Source: an uncultured Planctomycetota bacterium (lineage in GTDB: Bacteria; Planctomycetota; JACOTG01; JAUIME01). From it: a stretch of 64,000 nt of DNA. Of this stretch, positions 2,358-44,994 are shown piece after piece. The stretch's first letter is position 1. Every line of letters starts with the position of its first letter. A program made the position numbers and the translations under genes. Where the stretch lies: the NCBI GenBank assembly GCA_964597885.1, contig CAZQZX010000008.1:576-64575 (forward strand), given 5' to 3'. A model generated the notes under the pieces. That model searched no databases, had not been told where the DNA came from, and saw only the letters and a list, made by a program, of their open reading frames with translations.

Positions 2358-4307
2358 TCAGTCCTCGTCGCCGCCGCGCACGAAGAAGAACTCGCCGTCT
2401 CCTTCGGCCGTGTATCTCGGGCTCTGTTCGTACCCGAGGAGCTCGGCGGCGGAGGCCACCTGCAGCCTGAGGCGTGTCGCGAGATTCGAGACCATCGCGT
2501 GGCTGCCGATGCTGCGGAGCTCTTCGAGGAAGTGCTCCGTGAACAGCGAGTTCTTGCCGTGGCCGTCGAGGACGCGCTCGTCCGAGCTCCCGGCGGTGAG
2601 GAAGCACGTCACGGACTTCTTGGCGTACTGCTGCGGCAGGCTGGCCGTGGCCCCGCCCGAACGCGTCTGTCCGAGGAGCCCCGAGAAGCACGTATCGACG
2701 ACGACGAGCTTGTGACGCGCGTCGTTCATCGGGAGCCAGTCCTGCTGAAGGGCCCGCATGGCGAGGTTGCGCCGTGTCGAAGCTCCGGCCTCGAGCGTCC
2801 CGTCGTAGGGGATCAAGTAGCCGTGCGCGCGCTCTCGGGCGTCGGCGTGATCTTCGCCGTGACCGGCCCAGAACAACAGGAAGCTGTCGTCGGCGTCGGC
2901 GGCGCGCTGGATCGTTTCGAGCGTCCGTTCGATTCCGTCGAGTGTGGCCTGCTCGTTGATGAGGACGTGGGTCTCGGAAGGATCGTATCCGAGCTCGTCC
3001 ACGAGCACGGAGGCGATCGCTTGCGCGTCGTTCACGGCATTGTCGAGAGGCGCGATCGAGCGATCCGCGTAGCGATCGATCCCGACGATGAGCGCGTGGC
3101 GGCTCCCGTAGAGCGTCCGGGGCGAGAACACGTCTTCCAGTACGACGCCGCCATCGTCCTTGTCGCCTGCAGGCGGAAGCATGCCGCGCGTCTCGGACTC
3201 GTGGGGGATGCCGTCCGGACCTCCGCCGAGCGATTGGAAGAGCCAGACCCCGAGCAGAAGCGCGGCCGCGACGCCGGCCGGTCCGAGGAAGCGCCCGGGA
3301 TTCGGGAGGCCTCCGGTGGGATCGGCAGGGCGCAACGCGAGGGTGCGCCGCAGCACGGCGAGGATCCCGGCCGCGTCGAGGATCGTGCCGCCGTGGGGGG
3401 ATGCGACGAGCGTCCCGCGATGCCGCGCGCCGTCGTACCAGTGCGACGGGAGGTTCTGCGGCGAGTCGATGCCGCGGGCGCGGGCCTCGGCCTCGTCGAA
3501 GCGCGCGGCCAGGTCGGACAGGCGAAGACGCAGGGCCGGATCCGTCGACAGCACCCAGTCCGACGCGCGTAGCCGAACCGCGAGCATCCCGAATCCCTTG
3601 CCTTGCGGCGACTCGGGATCGGAGCGTGCCCAGTCGGCGAATCGATTGCTCGCGGGCTCCTCGAGCCAGAGCAGATCGCAATCGCGAACGGACGTTCCGC
3701 TCGGGACTCGCGCGGCGAATCGCCGACCCCGGTCCCGGTCTTCGAGGTAGACGTCGCGGTCGCGGCGGAGCATCGCGATCTCTTCCCGGAACGCCGACGT
3801 GCCCTCGAAGATCCCGGCGCCGAAGAGGTCGACCCCCTCGGCGATGCGTCCGGCGAGGTACTCGAACAACGCGAAGGACCGATCTCGGAACGACGCAGCC
3901 TGTGCGGCGTCGGCGAGATCCGGGGACTGGCGCTTGATCTCCTCGAAGATCGCCCGGGGGCTCTCGTCGACCGGCGCGGTTCCGGGGTCGAGCCCTTGGC
4001 GGCAGGCCCCCGCGTACTCGGCGAGCGCGGTCGCGGCTTCAGGCCGGGGCGACGATTCGGACGGCGCGCGGGTCAGGAGCCAGAGCGCGAGCAGGTCGTC
4101 GAAGACCGGAATCGACGGCGCGAAGATCGTGAGGATCGAAGAGTCGGTCCCGCCCGAAGCGAGGGCGGCCGATCCGTTCTCGAGCACGGCCTGTGAGAGT
4201 CGATCCGCGTCGGAAGCATCCGCCGCTTCGAGTACGGCTTCACCGGAGGCGGGCGGAGAAGGCCAGTCCTCTCGCGGACGAAAGCGGATCTCGAGCTCGG
4301 TCGTCAT
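2358..4307 (-). CDS. Membrane-anchored caspase-family (peptidase C14, metacaspase-like) protein with uncharacterised N-terminal domain
   Basis: C-terminal HALIVGIDRY...LDNAVNDAQAIA, FLLFWAGHG (catalytic His), VVVDTCFSG (catalytic Cys); one TM helix GPAGVAAALLLGVWLFQSL before it; SD GAAGGGAG before ATG 4307. Confidence 0.88.
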   Translation of the reverse strand: MTTELEIRFRPREDWPSPPASGEAVLEAADASDADRLSQAVLENGSAALASGGTDSSILTIFAPSIPVFDDLLALWLLTRAPSESSPRPEAATALAEYAGACRQGLDPGTAPVDESPRAIFEEIKRQSPDLADAAQAASFRDRSFALFEYLAGRIAEGVDLFGAGIFEGTSAFREEIAMLRRDRDVYLEDRDRGRRFAARVPSGTSVRDCDLLWLEEPASNRFADWARSDPESPQGKGFGMLAVRLRASDWVLSTDPALRLRLSDLAARFDEAEARARGIDSPQNLPSHWYDGARHRGTLVASPHGGTILDAAGILAVLRRTLALRPADPTGGLPNPGRFLGPAGVAAALLLGVWLFQSLGGGPDGIPHESETRGMLPPAGDKDDGGVVLEDVFSPRTLYGSRHALIVGIDRYADRSIAPLDNAVNDAQAIASVLVDELGYDPSETHVLINEQATLDGIERTLETIQRAADADDSFLLFWAGHGEDHADARERAHGYLIPYDGTLEAGASTRRNLAMRALQQDWLPMNDARHKLVVVDTCFSGLLGQTRSGGATASLPQQYAKKSVTCFLTAGSSDERVLDGHGKNSLFTEHFLEELRSIGSHAMVSNLATRLRLQVASAAELLGYEQSPRYTAEGDGEFFFVRGGDED

Positions 4308-4458
4308 CGATTCTCCCTTCGCAGAGGCAGGGCCCCGCGGGGACATTGTGCACGATGCCCCCTTCCCCCGAAAGAGGGCAGGGGCGCGATCCCTTTACGG
4401 GCTACACCCCCTCTTCCGTGCTCGCGCGATCACTTGAGAGGGTTTCTCGAGTCTTTTT

Positions 4459-24431: not shown

Positions 24432-25811
24432 ATGTCTGACGCTGAACGTAACTTGCAGTCGCTCCGGGAGGCCCTCGAGGTCTCGCCCGACAACGTTCCC
24501 CTGCGCCGTCACCTCGCGCGGTCGCTCGTGGACTGCCGACGTTTCGACGAGGCCATCGACGAGTTCAAGAAGGCGCTCTCGTTTGCGAGCGACGACGAGG
24601 AGCTGAAGCTCGGACTCGCCGACGCGTACCACAAGGCCGGGCGTACGTCGGAGGCGCTCGTCATTCTGGAATCGCTCGAAGCCCAGGCGCGAACCCCTGC
24701 GCCGGCCTACATCATGCACGCGCGCATCCTCCTCGCGACCGGCGAGGTCGAGGATGCCGTCCGCAAGTACAAGCGTGCGCTCGAGGTCGATCCGGCTTCG
24801 GAGGATCCCGACCTCACGTCGCGGCTCGGCGTGCAGCCCGCGCCCGCAGCGAGCGACGAGGACGAGATCGAGGAGATTCCGTTCGAGGTCGTCGATGGAC
24901 GCGTTCGCGCGAGCCACGACGAAGGCGGCGACGGCCCTCTCGGGGAAGTCGAGCGTCCCGACATCTCGTTCGACGACGTGGGCGGGATGGATCGCGTGAA
25001 GGACGAGATCCGCGCCAAGATCATTCATCCCCTCGAGCATCCCGAGATCTACGAGGCGTACGGCAAGAAGGTCGGCGGCGGCATCCTGATGTACGGCCCG
25101 CCCGGCTGCGGCAAGACGCATCTCGCGCGCGCCACGGCCGGCGAGGTGAAAGCGTCGTTCCTCTCCGTCGGACTGCACGACGTTCTCGACATGTGGATCG
25201 GGCAGAGCGAGCGGAACCTGAACGCCATCTTCCAGCAGGCGCGCGAGAACGCTCCTTGCGTTCTGTTCTTTGACGAGGTCGATGCGCTCGGCGCGAGCCG
25301 CACCGACATGCGCCAGAGCGCGGGCCGCCAGCTCATCAACCAGTTCCTCTCCGAGCTCGACGGGATCCACGCCTCGAACGAGGGCGTGCTGATCCTCGCC
25401 GCGACCAACACGCCGTGGCATCTCGACTCGGCGTTTCGTCGGCCCGGCCGATTCGATCGCATCATCTTCGTGACGCCGCCCGACGAGCCGGCTCGCGCCG
25501 AGATCCTGCGCGTGATGCTGAACGAGAAGCCCGTAAAGGAAGTGGACCGCGCGAAGGTCGCCAAGAAGACGGACGGGTTCTCGGGTGCCGACATGAAGGC
25601 GCTCGTCGACATGGCCGTCGAAGCCAAGCTCGCGGACGCCGTGAAGACGGGGATCCCCGAGCCGCTCACCACGAAGGATCTCCTCGCGGCCGCGAAGCCG
25701 CTCAAGCCGACGACGAAGGAATGGTTCGCGACGGCGCGCAACTACGCGCTCTACTCGAACCAGGGCGGCCTGTACGACAACATCCTCGACTACCTGGGGA
25801 TTCGCAAGTGA
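24432..25811 (+). CDS. TPR-containing AAA+ ATPase (classic Vps4/CDC48-like clade)
   Basis: N-terminal TPRs; Walker A GPPGCGKT, Walker B VLFFDEVD, SRH AATNTPWHLDSAFRRPGRFD. Confidence 0.92.
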   Translation: MSDAERNLQSLREALEVSPDNVPLRRHLARSLVDCRRFDEAIDEFKKALSFASDDEELKLGLADAYHKAGRTSEALVILESLEAQARTPAPAYIMHARILLATGEVEDAVRKYKRALEVDPASEDPDLTSRLGVQPAPAASDEDEIEEIPFEVVDGRVRASHDEGGDGPLGEVERPDISFDDVGGMDRVKDEIRAKIIHPLEHPEIYEAYGKKVGGGILMYGPPGCGKTHLARATAGEVKASFLSVGLHDVLDMWIGQSERNLNAIFQQARENAPCVLFFDEVDALGASRTDMRQSAGRQLINQFLSELDGIHASNEGVLILAATNTPWHLDSAFRRPGRFDRIIFVTPPDEPARAEILRVMLNEKPVKEVDRAKVAKKTDGFSGADMKALVDMAVEAKLADAVKTGIPEPLTTKDLLAAAKPLKPTTKEWFATARNYALYSNQGGLYDNILDYLGIRK

Positions 25812-37128: not shown

Positions 37129-38592
37129 CTACTCGACGTATCCGAGCCGGCGGAGCTGCTGGACCTGGTCCTCGGTGAGCTCGAGCGGTTCCGGGTCGGT
37201 GAGCCGGACCGACTTCTGCCACGCGCGGAAGGCGTCGACGTCTTTCTTCATGCGCTCCACGCGATCGGTGTGAGCGTCGGCGAGGTCGCGTTGCTCGCCG
37301 GGATCGGCCCTCCGATCGAACAGGCTCGCGGAGCCGAGATCGTGATGGACGATCAGCTTCCAGTCGTCGTCGATGAGGCTGGTCTCATGATTCCCGCGCA
37401 TCTCGTAGATCTGCGGATCGACGCCACCCTCGTGCGATCGAACCGAGATGGCCGGCCGGGTTTCTTCCGAGACCTCTCCGCGGATCGCCGGCAAGAGCGA
37501 CCGACCCTGCGCGGCGTCCGGGATCGCGAGCCCGAGCAGGTCGAGCACGGTCGGGTACACATCGACCAGCTGCGCAGGGGCCGCGATCCGCGACGCCGGA
37601 TGCTCGCGCCCGTCCGGTAGCTTCACGATCAGCGGAACGTGAACGAGCTCGCCGTGCAGCGACTGGTCGTGCAGCCAGTAGCCGTGCTCGAGCATCTCCT
37701 CGCCGTGATCGGCCACGAGGATCACGATCGCGTTCTCCCAGTAGCCGGCCTCGTCGAGGGCGCTCGCGACGGCGCGGAAGTTGTCGTCCGCCTCACGGAC
37801 CGCGAGGTCGTAGTACCGGTGGATCGCGTCGCGGCGCGCCTCGAGCTCCTGCTGCAGTTGAGGGAGCTCGGCCTTCAGCCGCTCGTTCTTCTCGACGCGC
37901 ATCACGAGATGACGGAACCGCTGGAGAAGCCGGTTCAGCTCCGCGAGCTCTTCCCGCTCGGTCCCGGTGAGGCTCCGTTCGAGAGAGTTCAGGGGCCAGT
38001 GCGGCTCGGTCGTGTGGATGTAGAGGAACAGGGGCTCGTCCTGCCGTTCCTTCTGCTCACCCAGCCAATCGAAGATCTGCTGGGAGGTCACGGTGGCCGA
38101 CTGGCGATTGGTCTTGTCGACGCGGAGCGGTCGCTCGAAGAGCTCGTCGTAACCCTGGTCGAGTCCGGTCGCGGATCCCGCGAACGGGCTCTGCGTGAAC
38201 GCTGCCGTCCGGTAGCCCGCGGCGCGCATCTGCTCCGGCAGCGTCTCGACGTCCTCGGGAAGTTTGCGACGCAGTCCGTGGATGCCGTGGCTCGGCGGGT
38301 AGGTGGAGGTCAGCAGGCTCACGACGGACGGCACGGTCCACGGGCCCTGGGACATGGCCTGCTCGAAGACCACGGATCGGGAGGCGAGCTCGTCGATGAA
38401 CGGAGACGTGTCGCCCGGATAGCCGTAGCAGCCGAGGCGATCGGCGCGCAGGGTATCGACGAGATACACGATGACGTGCGGCGTCGCCGGGGGAGGCGCG
38501 GCTCTCTCGCAACCGAGAGTCGTCCCGAATACGACCGCGAACACCGCGATGTGTGCGTGGGATCGGAAGATGGAACGGAGCGGGGCCGCCAT
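37129..38592 (-). CDS. Sulfatase-like (alkaline phosphatase superfamily) lipoprotein
   Basis: Lipobox TLGC; YLVDTLRADRLG, PWTVPSVVS, HTTEPH, ADHGEE, HVPLI, LVDVYPTV. Confidence 0.88.
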   Translation of the reverse strand: MAAPLRSIFRSHAHIAVFAVVFGTTLGCERAAPPPATPHVIVYLVDTLRADRLGCYGYPGDTSPFIDELASRSVVFEQAMSQGPWTVPSVVSLLTSTYPPSHGIHGLRRKLPEDVETLPEQMRAAGYRTAAFTQSPFAGSATGLDQGYDELFERPLRVDKTNRQSATVTSQQIFDWLGEQKERQDEPLFLYIHTTEPHWPLNSLERSLTGTEREELAELNRLLQRFRHLVMRVEKNERLKAELPQLQQELEARRDAIHRYYDLAVREADDNFRAVASALDEAGYWENAIVILVADHGEEMLEHGYWLHDQSLHGELVHVPLIVKLPDGREHPASRIAAPAQLVDVYPTVLDLLGLAIPDAAQGRSLLPAIRGEVSEETRPAISVRSHEGGVDPQIYEMRGNHETSLIDDDWKLIVHHDLGSASLFDRRADPGEQRDLADAHTDRVERMKKDVDAFRAWQKSVRLTDPEPLELTEDQVQQLRRLGYVE

Positions 38593-38622
38593 CGGCGAAG
38601 TTTATCAAACCCTTCGCGCTCG

Positions 38623-38651
38623 TTGACTCGCGGGGGCGGCCCCGATAGGAT
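38623..38651 (+). promoter_or_regulatory. Putative sigma70 promoter TTGACT-N17-TAGGAT for the AOR operon
   Basis: Hexamers at 38623-38628 and 38646-38651. Confidence 0.6.
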
Positions 38652-38753
38652 CGGGGGCAGTCCGGAAGAACCGGGAGTCTTATCGATTCAAAGAACGCTT
38701 CCGCGAGGGAGCGGGTGGCCGAAGCATGCCGATCGTCAGATCCGGAATCGCCC

Positions 38754-39023
38754 ATGCGCATCGTGTTCAAGCTGTATGCGAGCCTCGGCCGCTATCTACC
38801 CCCGCGTCCCGACGGGGGAGACGTCTCGACGAAGCACGAGTGCGTCATCGAGGTGCCGGCCGACGCGACGCCGGCCTGGGTGATCGAGCATCACGGCGTG
38901 CCCGAGGCGATGGCGCATCTTGTGCTGCTGAACGGTGTGTTCGTCGCACCGTCGGCCCGCACCACCACGACGCTGACCGAGGACGACGAGCTCGTCGTGT
39001 TCCCGCCGGTGGCCGGTGGGTGA
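38754..39023 (+). CDS. moaD: MoaD/ThiS-family sulfur carrier
   Basis: 89 aa; FKLYASL, LVLLNG, C-terminal ELVVFPPVAGG. Confidence 0.9.
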   Translation: MRIVFKLYASLGRYLPPRPDGGDVSTKHECVIEVPADATPAWVIEHHGVPEAMAHLVLLNGVFVAPSARTTTTLTEDDELVVFPPVAGG

Positions 39024-39109
39024 TTGCCGCGACCGCATCCGTCGGCGTCGCTCCGTCCTCTTTCCTTCGATCGTTCCCTGAGTCGGATTCCGTCCGAGGA
39101 GATCGCTGA

Positions 39110-39637
39110 ATGCAAAAGTCCCTGTTGCTCGAGCCCGCGAAATGTACCGGGTGCCTGCAGTGCGAGCTCGCCTGCTCGTACGAGAACGAAGGCGTCTTCA
39201 ATCCGGCGAAGTCGCGGATCAAGGTCTTCACGTTTCACGACGAAGGGCGATTCGCGCCGTACACCTGTACGCAGTGCGAAGAGGCGTGGTGCCTGCACTC
39301 GTGTCCGGTGGAAGCGATCGTGATCGACCCGGTGACGGGCGCGAAGAACGTGCTTCCGGAGGTCTGCGTCGGATGCAAGGTCTGCACGATCGCCTGTCCG
39401 TTCGGCACCGTGAACTACGAGCCGGATTCCGGAAAGGTCATCAAGTGCGACCTCTGCGGTGGCGATCCGTGGTGCGCGAAGGCTTGCCCCACGGGAGCGA
39501 TCCAGTACGTCGATGCCGCCGAGACCGGATACGAACGGATGCGCGCGTGGGCGCAGCAGAGTCCGGCCGGCGCGGGGCCGCGGACGAACACGGCACGAGA
39601 GAAGAACGTCGAATCTTTCGAGCGGGCGGATAGCTGA
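39110..39637 (+). CDS. aorA: 4x[4Fe-4S] ferredoxin subunit of aldehyde oxidoreductase
   Basis: CTGCLQCELAC, CTQCEEAWCLHSC, CVGCKVCTIAC, CDLCGGDPWCAKAC. Confidence 0.92.
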   Translation: MQKSLLLEPAKCTGCLQCELACSYENEGVFNPAKSRIKVFTFHDEGRFAPYTCTQCEEAWCLHSCPVEAIVIDPVTGAKNVLPEVCVGCKVCTIACPFGTVNYEPDSGKVIKCDLCGGDPWCAKACPTGAIQYVDAAETGYERMRAWAQQSPAGAGPRTNTAREKNVESFERADS

Positions 39638-39649
39638 GGAGGCCGGATC

Positions 39650-41500
39650 ATGGCGTGGACCCGGAAAGTACTGCGCGTCGACCTGACGGCCGGCAGCGTG
39701 AAGGAAGAACCGCTCAACATGGATTGGGCGAAGATGTATCTCGGGCAGCGAGGGCTCGCGAGCAAGTATCTCGTCGAGGAGATCGATCCAAACTGTGACG
39801 CTCTCGGCCCCGACAACAAGATGATCATGACGACCGGACCGCTCACCGGCACGATGGCGTCGACGGGCGGTCGCTACTCGGTCGTCACGAAGAGTCCGCT
39901 CACCGGCGCGATCGCGTGCTCGAACTCGGGCGGGTTCATCGGCGCCGAGATGAAGTCGGCCGGCTGGGACATGATCATCTTCGAGGGGAAGGCGCCGAAG
40001 CCGGTCTACCTCTACGTGCGAAACGAGCACGTCGAGCTGTGCTCGGCGGACGAGATCTGGGGCAAGTCGGTATGGGACGCCGACAAGTGGCTCCATCAGC
40101 AGCACGCCGACGCGTCGATCCGGATCGCGTGCGTCGGTCGATCGGCCGAGGAAGGCTGTCTCTACTCGGCGATCATCAACGACCTTCATCGCGCCGCGGG
40201 CCGATCGGGCGTCGGCACGGTGATGGCGTCGAAGAACCTGAAGGCCGTCGTCGTCCGCGGGACCCGTGGCGTCGGCAACCTCAAGGATCCGCTTCGCTTC
40301 ATGCAGGCGACCGAGGAAGGCAAGAAGGTGCTGGCCGAGAATGCCGTCACCGGCCAGGGGCTCCCGACGTACGGCACGCAGGTGCTGATGAACGTCATCA
40401 ACGAGATCGGGGCCATGCCGACCCACAACATGCGCGAGTCGAAGTTCGACGGCGCGAAGAAGATCTCGGGCGAGGCGATGCACGAACCGCGCGAGAGCGA
40501 CGGTCAGCCGAACCTCACGACCAACGCGGCCTGCTTCGGCTGCACGATCGCGTGCGGCCGCATCTCGACGATCGATCGCGAGCACTACACGATCAAGAAC
40601 AAGCCCGAGTACTGGGGCAATTCCGGTGGGCTCGAGTACGAAGCGGCGTGGTCGCTCGGATCGGATACGGGGGTCGACGATCTCGACGCGCTCACCTACG
40701 CGAACTTTCTGTGCAACGAAGACGGAATCGATCCGATCTCGTTCGGCGCCACGGTGGCGGCCGCGATGGAGCTCTTCGAGAAGGGCGCGATCACGACCGA
40801 GCACACCGGCGGCATCGAGATGAAGTTCGGGTCGGCCGAGGCGCTGACGAAGGCCGCCGAGCTCACCGCCAAGGGCGAGGGCTTCGGCAAGGATCTCGGC
40901 CTCGGGTCGAAGCGGCTGTGCGAGAAGTACGGCCACCCCGAGCTCTCGATGACGGTGCGCGGGCAGGAGTTCCCGGCCTACGATCCACGCGGGATCCAGG
41001 GCATGGGGCTCGCCTACGCGACGTCGAACCGCGGCGCCTGCCACCTGCGCGGCTACACGGTCGCGTCCGAGGTGCTCGGCATTCCCGAGAAGACCGATCC
41101 GCTCACGAGCGACGGAAAGCCGGCTCTCGTCAAGGCGTTCCAGGACGCGACGGCGGCGGTGGACTCGAGCGGACTGTGCGTCTTCACGACGTTCGCGTGG
41201 ACGCTCGACGACATCGCGCCGCAGATCGACGCGGCGTGTGAAGGCGAGTGGTCGCCCGAGTCGCTCCTCGAAGTCGGCGAGCGCATCTGGAACCTCGAGC
41301 GCGAGTTCAACGAGAGGGCCGGGAGCGGCGGCGCGGAAGATCGTCTGCCTGAGCGTCTCGTGAAGGAAGGCGCGAATACCGGCCCGGCCGAGGGACGCGT
41401 CAACGAGCTCGACAAGATGCTCCCCGAGTACTACGAGCTGAGAGGCTGGTCGAAGGACGGCAAGGTCACCGACGAGACGCGCAAGCGTCTGTCCCTGTAG
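39650..41500 (+). CDS. aorB: Tungsten-dependent aldehyde oxidoreductase catalytic subunit
   Basis: SPLTGAIACSNSGG, RAAGRSGVGTVMASKNLKAV, CFGCTIAC, EYE, DGIDPIS, SNRGACH, DSSGLCVF. Confidence 0.95.
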   Translation: MAWTRKVLRVDLTAGSVKEEPLNMDWAKMYLGQRGLASKYLVEEIDPNCDALGPDNKMIMTTGPLTGTMASTGGRYSVVTKSPLTGAIACSNSGGFIGAEMKSAGWDMIIFEGKAPKPVYLYVRNEHVELCSADEIWGKSVWDADKWLHQQHADASIRIACVGRSAEEGCLYSAIINDLHRAAGRSGVGTVMASKNLKAVVVRGTRGVGNLKDPLRFMQATEEGKKVLAENAVTGQGLPTYGTQVLMNVINEIGAMPTHNMRESKFDGAKKISGEAMHEPRESDGQPNLTTNAACFGCTIACGRISTIDREHYTIKNKPEYWGNSGGLEYEAAWSLGSDTGVDDLDALTYANFLCNEDGIDPISFGATVAAAMELFEKGAITTEHTGGIEMKFGSAEALTKAAELTAKGEGFGKDLGLGSKRLCEKYGHPELSMTVRGQEFPAYDPRGIQGMGLAYATSNRGACHLRGYTVASEVLGIPEKTDPLTSDGKPALVKAFQDATAAVDSSGLCVFTTFAWTLDDIAPQIDAACEGEWSPESLLEVGERIWNLEREFNERAGSGGAEDRLPERLVKEGANTGPAEGRVNELDKMLPEYYELRGWSKDGKVTDETRKRLSL

Positions 41501-41513
41501 AGGAGCGGGCATC

Positions 41514-42785
41514 ATGCATCACGTGATCGTCGGAGCCGGCCCCGCCGGTGTGGTGGCCGCCGAAACGCTGCGCAAGGCGGACGCCGATTGCCGCATCACG
41601 ATCGTGGGCGACGAGCCCGAGCCGCCGTACTCGCGCATGGCGATCCCGTATCTGCTCGAGGGGCAGATCGACGAGAAGGGGACGTACCTGCGCAAGGCCG
41701 ACGACCACTACGCGGGCCTGTCGATCGAGGTGATTCGAGATCGCGTCGCTTCCCTCGACACGGGAGTCAAGGAGCTGACGCTCGCGTCCGGCGGCAAGAC
41801 GGCGTACGACCGGCTTCTCATCGCGACGGGATCGAGCCCTCTCGTTCCGCCCGTCTCGGGCGTCGACCGCGATGGCGTTCATACTTGCTGGACGCTCGAG
41901 GACGCGCGCTCGATCCTCACGCTCGCGTCGAAGGGCGCGCCGGTCGTGCTGATCGGCGCCGGCTTCATCGGCTCGATCATCCTCGAAGCGCTCGCCACAC
42001 GCGGCGTGGACCTGACGGTCGTCGAGATGCAGGACCGCACGGTGCCGCGCATGCTGAACGATCGGGGCGCGGAGCTGCTGAAGCGCTGGTGCGAGCAGAA
42101 GGGCGTACAGATCCGGACGACGACGCGGGTCGAAGCGATCGAGGACGGAACGGACGGCGCGCGCCACTCGGTGCGGCTCGACCCAGGCGGCGCGATTCCG
42201 GCGGATCTGGTTGTCGTGTCGGCGGGCGTGAAGCCGAACGTCTCCTGGCTCGAAGGATCGGGACTCAAGATCGACCAGGGCGTCGTGGTGGATGATCATC
42301 TGCGTTCGAGCGACCCCGATATCTTTGCCGCAGGTGATGTCGCGCAGGGGCCGGACTTCTCGACCGGCGGATTCTCGGTGCACGCCGTGCAGCCGACGGC
42401 GGTCGATCACGCGCGCGTCGCGGCTCTGAACATGACGGGGAAGACGGTTCGCTACCAGGGTAGCGTGCAGATGAACGTGCTCGACACGCTCGGGCTCGTC
42501 TCGACCTCGTTCGGTAGCTGGGACGGCGTCGAAGGCGGCGATCAGGCCGAGCAGCACGACGCGGAGCGATTCGAGTACATCAACCTGCAGTTCAAGGGCG
42601 ACGTGCTCGTGGGCGCGAGCTCCGTGGGCATCACCGACCACATCGGCGTGCTGCGCGGTCTCATCCAGAGTCGGGTCAAGCTCGGCGACTGGAAGGAGAA
42701 GCTGAAGCACGAGCCGAAGCGCGTGATGGAAGCCTACCTCGCCCGTACGCAGCCGCTCGGATTGCCCGCGAAGGTGCTCCACTGA
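41514..42785 (+). CDS. aorC: FAD/NAD-dependent oxidoreductase subunit
   Basis: GAGPAG, PYSRMAIPY, YDRLLIATGS, GAGFIG, IFAAGDVA; directly after aorB. Confidence 0.88.
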   Translation: MHHVIVGAGPAGVVAAETLRKADADCRITIVGDEPEPPYSRMAIPYLLEGQIDEKGTYLRKADDHYAGLSIEVIRDRVASLDTGVKELTLASGGKTAYDRLLIATGSSPLVPPVSGVDRDGVHTCWTLEDARSILTLASKGAPVVLIGAGFIGSIILEALATRGVDLTVVEMQDRTVPRMLNDRGAELLKRWCEQKGVQIRTTTRVEAIEDGTDGARHSVRLDPGGAIPADLVVVSAGVKPNVSWLEGSGLKIDQGVVVDDHLRSSDPDIFAAGDVAQGPDFSTGGFSVHAVQPTAVDHARVAALNMTGKTVRYQGSVQMNVLDTLGLVSTSFGSWDGVEGGDQAEQHDAERFEYINLQFKGDVLVGASSVGITDHIGVLRGLIQSRVKLGDWKEKLKHEPKRVMEAYLARTQPLGLPAKVLH

Positions 42786-42814
42786 GCGAGGACGAGCCCC
42801 GCATCGCGCGCGAG

Positions 42815-43078
42815 ATGGGCTTCACGCACGCGGAGCTCTTTCGGACGCTGCGTCGCGTGTACGGGGATTCGGGCGTTGCGATCGACGGGCGGTCGGTGCG
42901 CATCCGGGACGGTAATCGCGAGGTACGGCTCGACCTCTCGGTGGAGTCGACGCGTCGGCTCGGATCGCTTTCGCTTCCCGTGGTCCACGTCGAGTTCCGT
43001 TTCGCCGGGCATACCCCGGAAGACGTCGAACGATTCCTCGAGCACTTCGACGCGCACTTCCGCAAGGGCGGGGGGTAG
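42815..43078 (+). CDS. Small hypothetical protein (87 aa) ending in KGGG
   Basis: MGFTHAELFRTL...LPVVHVEFRF...FDAHFRKGGG; 29 nt after aorC on the same strand. Confidence 0.75.
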   Translation: MGFTHAELFRTLRRVYGDSGVAIDGRSVRIRDGNREVRLDLSVESTRRLGSLSLPVVHVEFRFAGHTPEDVERFLEHFDAHFRKGGG

Positions 43079-43090
43079 CGCCGCGGTCGC

Positions 43091-43759
43091 TCAGTAGCTG
43101 CCGGGGTCGATCGGCGATTCCGACTCGATCTGCCGCAGCCTTTCCGCGTACGCCTCGAGCTGCTGCTCGCGTTCGGCCGCTTCGAGATGCGCCGGCCCAT
43201 AGACCACGGTCGGCGCGAGCACGTGGAAGCCGACGAAGTAGAACACCCCCCGGTGGACGGGCCTGAGGATGGCGTCGAGATCGCCGTTGAAGCCGCCTTT
43301 CTCGTACGCGGCCTTGGGGCCTCCCGTGGTCGTCGACACCATCGCCTTCTTGTCTCGGAAGAAGCCCGTGTCGTAGAAGCGTCCGCCGCCGTAGGTTCGT
43401 CCCATGGCGAAGACGCGGTCGACCCACCCCTTCAGGATCGCCGGCACGCCGAACCACCAGAGCGGAAACTGCCAGATCATGAGGTCGCACCACTCGAGCT
43501 TCTCGAGCTCGGCCTCGATGTCGGCGGCAAATCCGTCCGCCTCGGTCGCGTGGATCTCCTCGATCTGCTGCTTGAAGTAGTCGGCGTCCTTCGTCGTCGT
43601 GAAGTTACGGCGATCGGAGACCGGATCGAAGCCCATCGCGTAGAGATCCGACGTGCGGACCTCGTGCCCTTCGGCTTCGAGCGTGTCGACGGCCGTGCGG
43701 AACATCGCGCCGTTGAAGCTCGACGGTTCGGCGTGGGCGAAGACAACGAGCGCTTTCAT
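43091..43759 (-). CDS. NAD(P)H:quinone oxidoreductase (flavodoxin-2 family)
   Basis: MKALVVFAHAEPSSFN, SDLYAMGFDP, QFPLWWFGVPAILKGWVDRVF; ATG overlaps the pepT stop. Confidence 0.92.
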   Translation of the reverse strand: MKALVVFAHAEPSSFNGAMFRTAVDTLEAEGHEVRTSDLYAMGFDPVSDRRNFTTTKDADYFKQQIEEIHATEADGFAADIEAELEKLEWCDLMIWQFPLWWFGVPAILKGWVDRVFAMGRTYGGGRFYDTGFFRDKKAMVSTTTGGPKAAYEKGGFNGDLDAILRPVHRGVFYFVGFHVLAPTVVYGPAHLEAAEREQQLEAYAERLRQIESESPIDPGSY

Positions 43760-44994
43760 GCCGCGCCTTCCTTGCCCCACAGTCGCGCGAGCTCGATGAG
43801 GACGTTCTTCGCGGCGTCCATCTCTTCGACGCTGGTCCACTCGAGCGGCGAGTGCGGATTGTGCTGACCGGTCGAGAGGTTCGGCGTCGGGAGCCCCATC
43901 TCGGTGAGGCCCGAGCCGTCGGTGCCGCCGCGGATGATCGTCGGCTGCGGTTCGAGGCCGGCATCGCGGATCGCCTGCATGCCGAGCGTGAGGGCGCGCG
44001 GCTCGCGCCCGAGGCCGTCGCGCATGTTGCGGTACTGCTTGCGCACTTCGATCTCGATCGACGCCTTCGGGTGCAGCGGACGAAGCTCGGCGGCGATGGA
44101 CTCGAGGAGCGCGGCTTGATCGGCCAGTTTCGGCGTCTCGAAGTCGCGCAGGATCAGCTGCGCGCGCGCTTCCGCCACGCCTCCCTGGATCTCGTACGGG
44201 TGCACGAAGCCGTCGCGACCCGACGTGCATTCGGGAGAGAGGTCGGCGGGAAGCCGCGAGAGGAACTCGCCGAGGATCCGGATCGCGTTGACGAGCTTGT
44301 CCTTGCCCATCGACGGGTGGGTGTTGATGCCCGTCACGGTGACGATGGCGAGGTCGGCCGAGAACGTCTCGGTGTCGATCTTCGCCGTGCCTTCGCCGTC
44401 GAGCGTGTAGCCGCATACGGCGTCGATCGCGGCGAGGTCGATCTTCTCGGTGCCGCGCCCGATCTCCTCGTCGCACGTGAAGCAGAGGCGGATCGGGCCG
44501 TGCGCGATGTCCGGATGATCGAGCAGATGCTGCGCCGCCGACAGGATGACCGCGATCCCCGATTTGTCGTCGGAGCCGAGGAGCGTCGTGCCGTCGGTTG
44601 TGATGATGGTACCGCCGTGGAGCGTCGCGAGCGTCGGGTTCTCGTCGACGCGAACGACTTTCGACGGATCGCCCGGCAGCACGATGTCGCGGCCGTCGTA
44701 GTCCGCGTGCACGACCGGCTTCACGTTCGTGCCCGACGTCTCGGGCGATGTGTCGACGTGGGCGAACCACGCGATCGCGGGCGCCTGGCAACCGGGCGTC
44801 GCGGGCACCGTGGCGAGGACGAGGCCATCCGGCGTGAGCGTCACATCGGCGAGGCCCATGTCGCGGCACTCGGCCTCGAGCATGCGGCTGAGGTCGAGCT
44901 GCTTCGCGGTGCTCGGATACGTCGTGCTGTGCTCGTCGGCCTGGGTGTCGACCTGGACGTAGCGGAGGAATCGATCGAGAAGCGTGGTCGTCAT
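43756..44994 (-). CDS. pepT: Peptidase T (M20B tripeptide aminopeptidase)
   Basis: LLDRFLRYVQVDTQAD, AHVDTS, LLGSDDKSG, FTCDEEIGRG, IRGGTDGS, HNPHSPLEW. Confidence 0.95.
   Translation of the reverse strand: MTTTLLDRFLRYVQVDTQADEHSTTYPSTAKQLDLSRMLEAECRDMGLADVTLTPDGLVLATVPATPGCQAPAIAWFAHVDTSPETSGTNVKPVVHADYDGRDIVLPGDPSKVVRVDENPTLATLHGGTIITTDGTTLLGSDDKSGIAVILSAAQHLLDHPDIAHGPIRLCFTCDEEIGRGTEKIDLAAIDAVCGYTLDGEGTAKIDTETFSADLAIVTVTGINTHPSMGKDKLVNAIRILGEFLSRLPADLSPECTSGRDGFVHPYEIQGGVAEARAQLILRDFETPKLADQAALLESIAAELRPLHPKASIEIEVRKQYRNMRDGLGREPRALTLGMQAIRDAGLEPQPTIIRGGTDGSGLTEMGLPTPNLSTGQHNPHSPLEWTSVEEMDAAKNVLIELARLWGKEGAA

Follow-up and report, generated by a model that had tools for sequence, protein, structure and literature searches.

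An aorDABCE operon for an AorABC-type aldehyde oxidoreductase in an uncultured planctomycete, most likely acquired horizontally

To our knowledge, tungsten enzymes of the AorABC type have been characterised only in Aromatoleum. The aldehyde oxidoreductase (AOR) of the betaproteobacterium Aromatoleum aromaticum EbN1, AOR_Aa, combines an electron-transfer subunit (AorA), a catalytic subunit (AorB) and an FAD-containing subunit (AorC), and its structure is that of a filament (PDB 8C0Z; PMC6365974, PMC10413684). NAD+ as the acceptor, relative O2 tolerance and the H2-dependent reduction of acids and NAD+ are known only for this enzyme (PMC6365974, PMC9295118). Other described systems include the three-subunit AOR of Moorella thermoacetica and, in PDB 9MQX, a WOR nanowire enzyme (PMC12318220), both from strict anaerobes and both with an AOR catalytic subunit paired with a polyferredoxin, and the homodimeric AOR of Pyrococcus furiosus (PDB 1AOR), a single-subunit, ferredoxin-dependent, hyperthermophilic and extremely O2-sensitive enzyme without AorA or AorC partners. 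The subject of this analysis is a run of five close-packed genes (aorD-aorA-aorB-aorC and a fifth gene in the aorE position, all on the + strand, 38623-43078) in a 64,000-nucleotide stretch of contig CAZQZX010000008.1, hereafter the window, from the metagenome-assembled genome (MAG) of an uncultured Planctomycetota bacterium. These genes very probably constitute a functional aorDABCE operon that encodes an AorABC-type enzyme. Horizontal transfer from a proteobacterium of the gamma clade of this family is its most likely origin, selection has since kept it, and the cofactor is probably supplied from elsewhere in the genome. The comparisons that follow show which genes are present, how far the residues are conserved, what the host is, how the operon is distributed and that it is under selection; the metal, the substrates, NAD coupling, filaments and the donor and direction of transfer are inferred.

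All operon open reading frames (ORFs) are intact, with intergenic gaps of 86, 12, 13 and 29 nt along the operon, and the products of the three subunit genes align over their full length with the chains of 8C0Z. AorB (39650..41500, + strand), the predicted catalytic subunit, would carry a tungsten/pterin cofactor and one [4Fe-4S] cluster. It matches Pfam AFOR_N (PF02730; 1.3e-76) and AFOR_C (PF01314; 1.4e-139) and, in a search of all PDB sequences, chain 8c0z_A across residues 1-616 (E = 5.3e-291); its global identity to the A. aromaticum AorB is 67.6%, compared with 53-56% for the nearest other AOR clade. The M. thermoacetica AOR and the 9MQX WOR (chain 9mqx_D, E = 2.8e-203) fall in sub-clades separate from that of the window, and the P. 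furiosus AOR (E = 5.8e-173) shares the catalytic fold and the cofactor motifs. The functional residues checked were those named for AOR_Aa in the structure paper (PMC10413684). The Mg ligands N92 and A182, the pterin contacts R75, G94, R181, D361, D504, C509 and V510, the four cysteines of the [4Fe-4S] cluster FS0 (C295, C298, C302 and C509, the last being residue 510 in the window protein), E331 and, in the aromatic pocket, Y468, F511 and F514 have not changed; the contacts of the tungsten-bis-metallopterin (W-bis-MPT) and Mg are the same in both enzymes. One difference, among the pterin contacts, is I508, which is leucine in the window, likewise in 69 of the 80 relatives. The residue printed as His484 in PMC10413684 is leucine in the window AorB and in 76 of the 80 relatives and is therefore not diagnostic; the invariant histidine is H464, within GACHLRG, and the printed number is probably a slip for this family-wide invariant residue.

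The aorA gene (39110..39637, + strand), for the electron-transfer subunit, lies directly upstream of aorB, 12 nt away, and its product matches chain 8c0z_C (E = 1.3e-73) and the 9MQX polyferredoxin subunit (9mqx_E, E = 1.9e-33). Its 16 cysteines (12, 15, 18, 22, 53, 56, 61, 65, 86, 89, 92, 96, 113, 116, 122 and 126), which make up four [4Fe-4S] sites, occupy the same positions in the 8C0Z AorA. The C-terminal helix TGYERMRAWA is kept: in the alignment, TGYERMRAWAQQ corresponds to TGLARMQAWAAK of AOR_Aa and to the motif of 79 relatives, and deletion of this helix abolishes filaments in AOR_Aa (PMC10413684). Past the helix, the window AorA, unlike that of AOR_Aa, has a tail of ~20 amino acids (PRTN..P.EK..f.R; AorA C-terminus, window 39560-39637). 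The AorA of the M. thermoacetica enzyme is described as lacking the C-terminal extension (PMC12096430). The tail is limited to the window, a second planctomycete MAG of the same family (G001, locus L172) and seven operons of uncultured Gammaproteobacteria and Candidatus Entotheonella (L003, L010, L012, L013, L016, L027 and L039). The aorC gene (41514..42785, + strand) directly follows aorB after 13 nt; its product, a pyridine-nucleotide-disulfide-type flavoprotein (Pyr_redox_2, 7.8e-57) with two GxGxxG motifs in the translation, GAGPAG and GAGFIG, matches chain 8c0z_E over residues 1-416, C-terminal helical domain included (E = 2.9e-137), and is predicted to contain FAD and bind NAD.

An earlier interpretation of this DNA made without database searches, the sequence-only reading, had proposed an Aromatoleum-type tungsten AOR operon with a promoter, a moaD gene, a 4-cluster ferredoxin, an AOR and an FAD subunit, all with intact motifs. 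Each of these named genes is found where it was placed, the cofactor, Fe-S and substrate-pocket residues checked in AorB are kept, and the assignment to the Aromatoleum type agrees both with the matches to the 8C0Z chains and with the AorB tree described below. The gene list was incomplete in that the fifth gene (42815-43078), which lies inside the same interval, had been left unnamed.

The proposed promoter, too, is present. A promoter-like -35/-10 pair (TTGACT, 17 nt, TAGGAT; 38623..38651, + strand) lies upstream of aorD, agrees with the consensus at 9 of 12 positions and is the sole sigma-70-like match in 38400-43400, where 0.4 would be expected. When the window is compared with G001, GTTGACTCGCG, a 17-nt spacer and TAGGATCG form the sole well-conserved stretch upstream of aorD; both boxes and the spacer are kept in G001, and the flanking bases have diverged. 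The conserved boxes represent a phylogenetic footprint for this predicted promoter. Translation of aorD (38754..39023, + strand) probably starts, as it does in G001, from the ATG at 38754 (MRIVFKLYASL) rather than from the alternative in-frame GTG at 38715. Two similar ATG-containing 12-mers, ATGCCGATCGTC and ATGCGCATCGTG, stand 28 nt apart around this start (window 38726-38765); the 5' leader of aorD in the window may contain a small duplication, because G001 carries a single copy of the 12-mer. Between the window MAG (G000) and G001, the ratio of nonsynonymous to synonymous substitution rates (dN/dS) is 0.19 for both aorB and aorA and 0.18 for aorD; dS itself ranges over 0.6-1.6. The intact ORFs, low dN/dS and conserved promoter boxes suggest that the operon is in use, and the substitution ratios point to purifying selection ever since its acquisition.

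The two small genes of the operon were compared with those of 160 related loci, 80 near the closest AorB relatives and 80 near relatives of the Aromatoleum AorB; the A. aromaticum EbN1 locus itself lies outside the compared set. The usual order in these loci is aorA-B-C, followed by the MoaD-like gene and then by a homologue of the 87-amino-acid fifth ORF, and this A-B-C-D-E order is seen in 51 of the 80 beta-clade loci and in most gamma-clade loci. In the window and in G001, the MoaD-like gene stands in front (D-A-B), which gives the order D-A-B-C-E in the window, as opposed to A-B-C-D-E for AOR_Aa. Among the compared loci, only the gammaproteobacterial L063 also shows D-A-B-C-E, and this looks like an independent rearrangement because L063 sits elsewhere in the tree. 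AorD is a MoaD/ThiS-like small protein with a Gly-Gly end (Pfam ThiS, 7.7e-7; weak NCBIfam SAMP1/ThiS matches); its homologues (34-52% identity), which follow aorC in most of the 160 loci, end in AGG in 69 of 71 cases.

The fifth gene (42815..43078, + strand) belongs to an uncharacterised family. Its homologues (26-47% identity) come after aorD in the same 51 of 80 beta-clade loci (Rhodocyclales and Burkholderiales) and in most gamma-clade loci, a position from which the fifth ORF would be the equivalent of the published aorE. The family ends in GGG in 51 of 52 members. Both aorD and aorE are said to resemble MoaD (PMC6365974). The possibility that the fifth protein is a beta-grasp carrier of the MoaD/ThiS kind was considered and rejected: the family scans gave no Pfam or NCBIfam match, hhalign of the family against the AorD alignment returned a probability of 1%, and only the C-terminal GGG recalls such carriers. 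The AlphaFold2 (AF2) model of the protein (44 sequences; predicted local distance difference test score, pLDDT, 83.6) shows a six-strand beta meander between two helices, a predicted fold that is not beta-grasp, and a Foldseek search of this model against the PDB produced no match better than E = 0.1. In these tests, the published likeness to MoaD appears to hold for the MoaD-like gene and not for the fifth-gene family. In Aromatoleum toluclasticum (L276:8221-11219), an opposite-strand gene for a 485-amino-acid protein is located between aorD and the GGG-tailed gene, with a tupB-like permease gene directly after, an arrangement that hints at a tie between the GGG-tailed family and tungsten handling. 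A tentative idea, which we regard as possible rather than probable, is that the fifth gene encodes a new C-terminally activated carrier or a cofactor-insertion factor of tungsten AORs that was co-transferred into the planctomycete lineage, and that the O2-tolerant tungsten enzyme might provide hydrogenase-independent H2:NAD+ activity.

The host is a planctomycete. The source MAG (7.0 Mb in 464 contigs, 66% GC, 86.6% complete, 3.9% contamination) was placed by RpoB and PepT because a search of the MAG for 16S rRNA found no gene. The RpoB fragment is 90% identical to that of G001 and 65-73% identical to those of about 75 Planctomycetota MAGs, and the best 80 matches of PepT (63-72% identity) are almost all from Planctomycetota, in line with the non-proteobacterial host suspected from the sequence. 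GC content at third codon positions (GC3) is 0.83-0.90 in the aor genes, like that of the neighbours, and is uniform along the contig. The lineage is small: the family includes one other species (G001) and the order two more (G002 and G003), the remaining relatives being of the same phylum only. When flanks were sought for a comparison of insertion sites, G002 had no PepT match, G003 had only a 47% homologue and the G001 contigs were of 3.9, 1.5 and <1 kb; no insertion site is definable because these G001 contigs are too short. Two of the G001 contigs (C123 and C711, loci L172 and L173) jointly cover aorB, and their overlap of ~127 codons is not identical, which suggests strain heterogeneity or two copies in the G001 MAG.

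In an even sample of 401 Planctomycetota species, this AorB type was detected in two only, the window MAG and G001, whose AorB proteins are ~82-85% identical; the next best matches in the phylum (<=56% identity) belong to other AOR clades, and this AorB type was not found in the order mates G002 and G003. By comparison, scans of species-representative genomes show that more than 596 proteobacterial loci carry it, almost all of them, among the matches listed, in Gammaproteobacteria in the first scan (Arenicellales, Granulosicoccaceae, Ectothiorhodospiraceae, Thiotrichales, sponge and clam symbionts) and in Betaproteobacteria in the second (Rhodocyclales and Burkholderiales). In the maximum-likelihood (ML) tree of AorB (126 rows), 123 rows, the window among them, form an AorABC clade that is set apart from planctomycete AORs of other clades with 100% support in the Shimodaira-Hasegawa-like approximate likelihood ratio test (SH-aLRT), so that AorB does not fall in another AOR clade. 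The AorABC clade comprises a beta clade with the Aromatoleum enzyme and a gamma clade (97% support); the window and G001 pair as sisters (SH-aLRT 93) in a gamma sub-group of 8 rows, and the gamma clade is the sister of the Aromatoleum clade. The concatenated AorA+B+C tree gives 100% for the beta versus gamma split, 96 for the window with G001 and 91% for a 9-row sub-group. The sub-group that holds this pair consists of exactly those loci that share the ~20-amino-acid extension of AorA. Its other members, the seven gammaproteobacterial and Entotheonella operons listed above, are the nearest relatives (AorB 78-80%) and have the same five genes, with the order A-B-C-D-E and, unlike the window, proteobacterial or Tectomicrobia hosts. 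The distances are those of an ordinary gamma-clade member: the mean AorB identity of the window is 77.4% to the gamma clade, compared with 76.5% within the gamma clade, and 68.4% to the beta clade, compared with 69.2% between gamma and beta. Across phyla, the window AorB reaches identities of up to 81%, higher than the ~70% between the RpoB of the MAG and those of other planctomycetes. A planctomycete host with an AorB that belongs, in the ML trees, to a gammaproteobacterial clade is the mismatch between enzyme phylogeny and host taxonomy that the sequence-only reading had suggested looking for.

Two of the other loci deserve mention. L065 (CAUZOB010000271.1, a 5.2-kb contig of a 'Planctomycetota' bin) has aorABCDE with an AorB that groups among sponge-symbiont Gammaproteobacteria, far from the window; this contig was either binned wrongly or reflects a transfer of its own. 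L013 (OY282375.1), the closed chromosome of a Candidatus Entotheonella (Tectomicrobia), carries a complete aorABCDE near the window sub-group and is another non-proteobacterial holder of the operon.

In agreement with the sequence-only reading, the window encodes neither a tungstate transporter nor MoeA; genes of both kinds sit on other contigs of the MAG, so that the genes for the tungsten cofactor are present in the genome. A tupA-tupB-tupC-like ABC transporter operon (C101:18885-21054, - strand) encodes a TupA-like protein with a TTTS motif, whose best NCBIfam match is TupA (NF041772), and a TupB-like permease, which scores above the cut-off of ABC_perm1 and is followed by an ABC ATPase. 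This TupA is 41-53% identical to TupA proteins encoded within 5 kb of aor operons in Betaproteobacteria, and tupB occurs within 5 kb of the aor operon in 20 of the 80 beta-clade loci. Three MoeA are encoded in the MAG, two on C105 and one on C48, as are MoaE and MoaA, both outside the window. On C105 (13975-19720, - strand), a second AOR paralogue (33% identical to AorB) adjoins the two moeA genes, the product of one of which is a 619-amino-acid fusion of MoeA with a periplasmic-binding domain (PRK14498, 717 bits, above the cut-off); these genes look like a separate tungsten or molybdenum cofactor cluster. The moeA gene on C48 (28093-29709) appears to change frame about two thirds along, the C-terminal motifs continuing in another frame, which could be a frameshift or an assembly error. 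A third AOR paralogue (C215:4477-6780, - strand; 30% identical to AorB) combines AFOR_N and AFOR_C with a C-terminal ThiS/MoaD-like domain that ends in GG.

By analogy with AOR_Aa, AorB would oxidise aldehydes to carboxylic acids at a bis-metallopterin centre, most probably one with tungsten, and the electrons would pass from the [4Fe-4S] cluster of AorB along the AorA chain of four clusters and on to the AorC flavin (FAD), where NAD+ would be reduced. AorD and the GGG-tailed fifth protein would be accessory factors, probably in cofactor maturation, and the cell probably supplies the cofactor through the tupABC-like, moeA, moaA and moaE genes elsewhere in the genome. The operon would have come from a proteobacterium of the gammaproteobacterial AorABC clade and entered the ancestor of the small family to which the MAG and G001 belong. 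What is said here of tungsten, NAD coupling, the range of substrates, tolerance of O2, filaments and the use of H2 is extrapolated from AOR_Aa.

Several observations weigh against this combined account. In approximately unbiased (AU) tests, placement of the planctomycete pair on the outgroup side of all proteobacterial AorB is not rejected (p = 0.447), nor is its placement outside the gamma-labelled rows (p = 0.307 for AorB, p = 0.39 for AorABC); the MAG is fragmented and incomplete, with some contamination, and the cofactor genes are on other contigs; the TupA-like and TupB-like proteins score 222 bits against a 400-bit cut-off and 198 bits against a 320-bit cut-off, respectively, so that, with both under the NCBIfam curated cut-offs, the transporter is no more than probably specific for tungstate; and the window shows no pathway linked to the operon that would produce aldehydes. 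Because the AU tests are non-significant, the nesting, the donor and the direction of the transfer rest on distribution, distances and one indel, the phylogeny being less decisive than plain nesting within the gamma clade would imply; the horizontal acquisition suspected in the sequence-only reading is based on distribution, distances, ML placement and the same indel. The AU results, together with the very short backbone branches of the gamma clade in the ML trees, leave some room for an operon that is ancient in Planctomycetota, having descended vertically with massive loss, or that moved from planctomycetes to Proteobacteria. Such histories are nevertheless unlikely: among the 401 sampled species the operon occurs in 2 only, both of one family, and it is missing from the two other genomes of the order, the window lies at the distances typical of gamma-gamma and gamma-beta pairs, unlike a separate phylum-level lineage, AorB is closer across phyla than RpoB is within the phylum, and the C-terminal extension of AorA links the window with one particular sub-group of gammaproteobacterial and Entotheonella operons. 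The best supported and most likely reading is that the operon was acquired horizontally from the gamma-type AorABC clade, with a topology that is not statistically proven.

A binning or assembly artefact, in which the contig or the operon part of it derives from a co-occurring gammaproteobacterium, could be imagined given the fragmentation and estimated contamination of the MAG, the gammaproteobacterial affinity of the closest AorB relatives and the 5.2-kb contig of L065, which could well be mis-binned; it is very hard to reconcile with an operon that lies in the middle of a 64.8-kb contig, two genes from a planctomycete-like PepT and along with sulfatase and type II pseudopilin-like genes, with the uniform GC3 over the contig, and with the independently assembled G001, which has the same operon, the unusual D-A-B order and the promoter boxes, and we give it hardly any credence. 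As to function, the AorABC homologues might work otherwise than in Aromatoleum, as a Mo-loaded enzyme, an acid reductase, an H2:NAD+ oxidoreductase or an enzyme with a narrower substrate range. The window has no tungsten genes next to the operon, AOR_Aa itself reduces acids and NAD+ with H2 in vitro (PMC9295118), and neither the genome nor the surroundings of the operon yielded a source of aldehydes: for pyrroloquinoline quinone (PQQ) alcohol dehydrogenase, there is no match above the cut-off in the MAG and none close to the operon. Against this, the window AorB has the same residues as AOR_Aa about the cofactor and its aromatic pocket for the substrate, TupAB-like genes are present in the MAG, and only one AOR sub-clade, the YdhV type, is reported as appearing to prefer Mo (PMC12096430), so that a departure from the Aromatoleum-type function seems unlikely. 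An AorABC-type, most probably tungsten-dependent aldehyde oxidoreductase acquired from the gamma clade accommodates these observations better.

The operon is flanked upstream by a sulfatase gene on the opposite strand (37129-38592) and downstream by two genes that converge on it, one for a flavodoxin-fold NAD(P)H oxidoreductase-like protein (43091-43759) and pepT (43756-44994). Elsewhere in the window, and unrelated to the operon, are genes for a 662-amino-acid protein with an EACC1-associated-type caspase domain (2358-4346, - strand) and for a 459-amino-acid protein with TPR and a CDC48/FtsH-like AAA ATPase (24432-25811, + strand).

The window operon is an ordinary, phylogenetically displaced member of a well-described and widespread enzyme family in an unusual host, and reveals no new mechanism. 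Relative to AOR_Aa, it retains the FS0 cysteines, Glu331, the GACHLRG histidine, the aromatic pocket, the 16 AorA cysteines, the helix required for filaments, the MoaD-like gene and the fifth small gene, and differs in its host phylum, gene order, AorA tail and clade. The single point possibly worth the attention of specialists is the GGG-tailed fifth gene, which does not look MoaD-like in these tests despite the description of aorE in the literature. Enzymes of the AorABC type attract interest as biocatalysts for the reduction of acids and because of their 'nanowire' architecture. Hundreds of species of Beta- and Gammaproteobacteria carry the operon, which has most likely also entered one deep family of planctomycetes, if not more, and appears to be maintained there by selection. 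The window enzyme, a divergent orthologue (68% identical), would lend itself to comparative biochemistry, and its presence in this family points to a wider ecological and taxonomic range for mesophilic tungsten metabolism.

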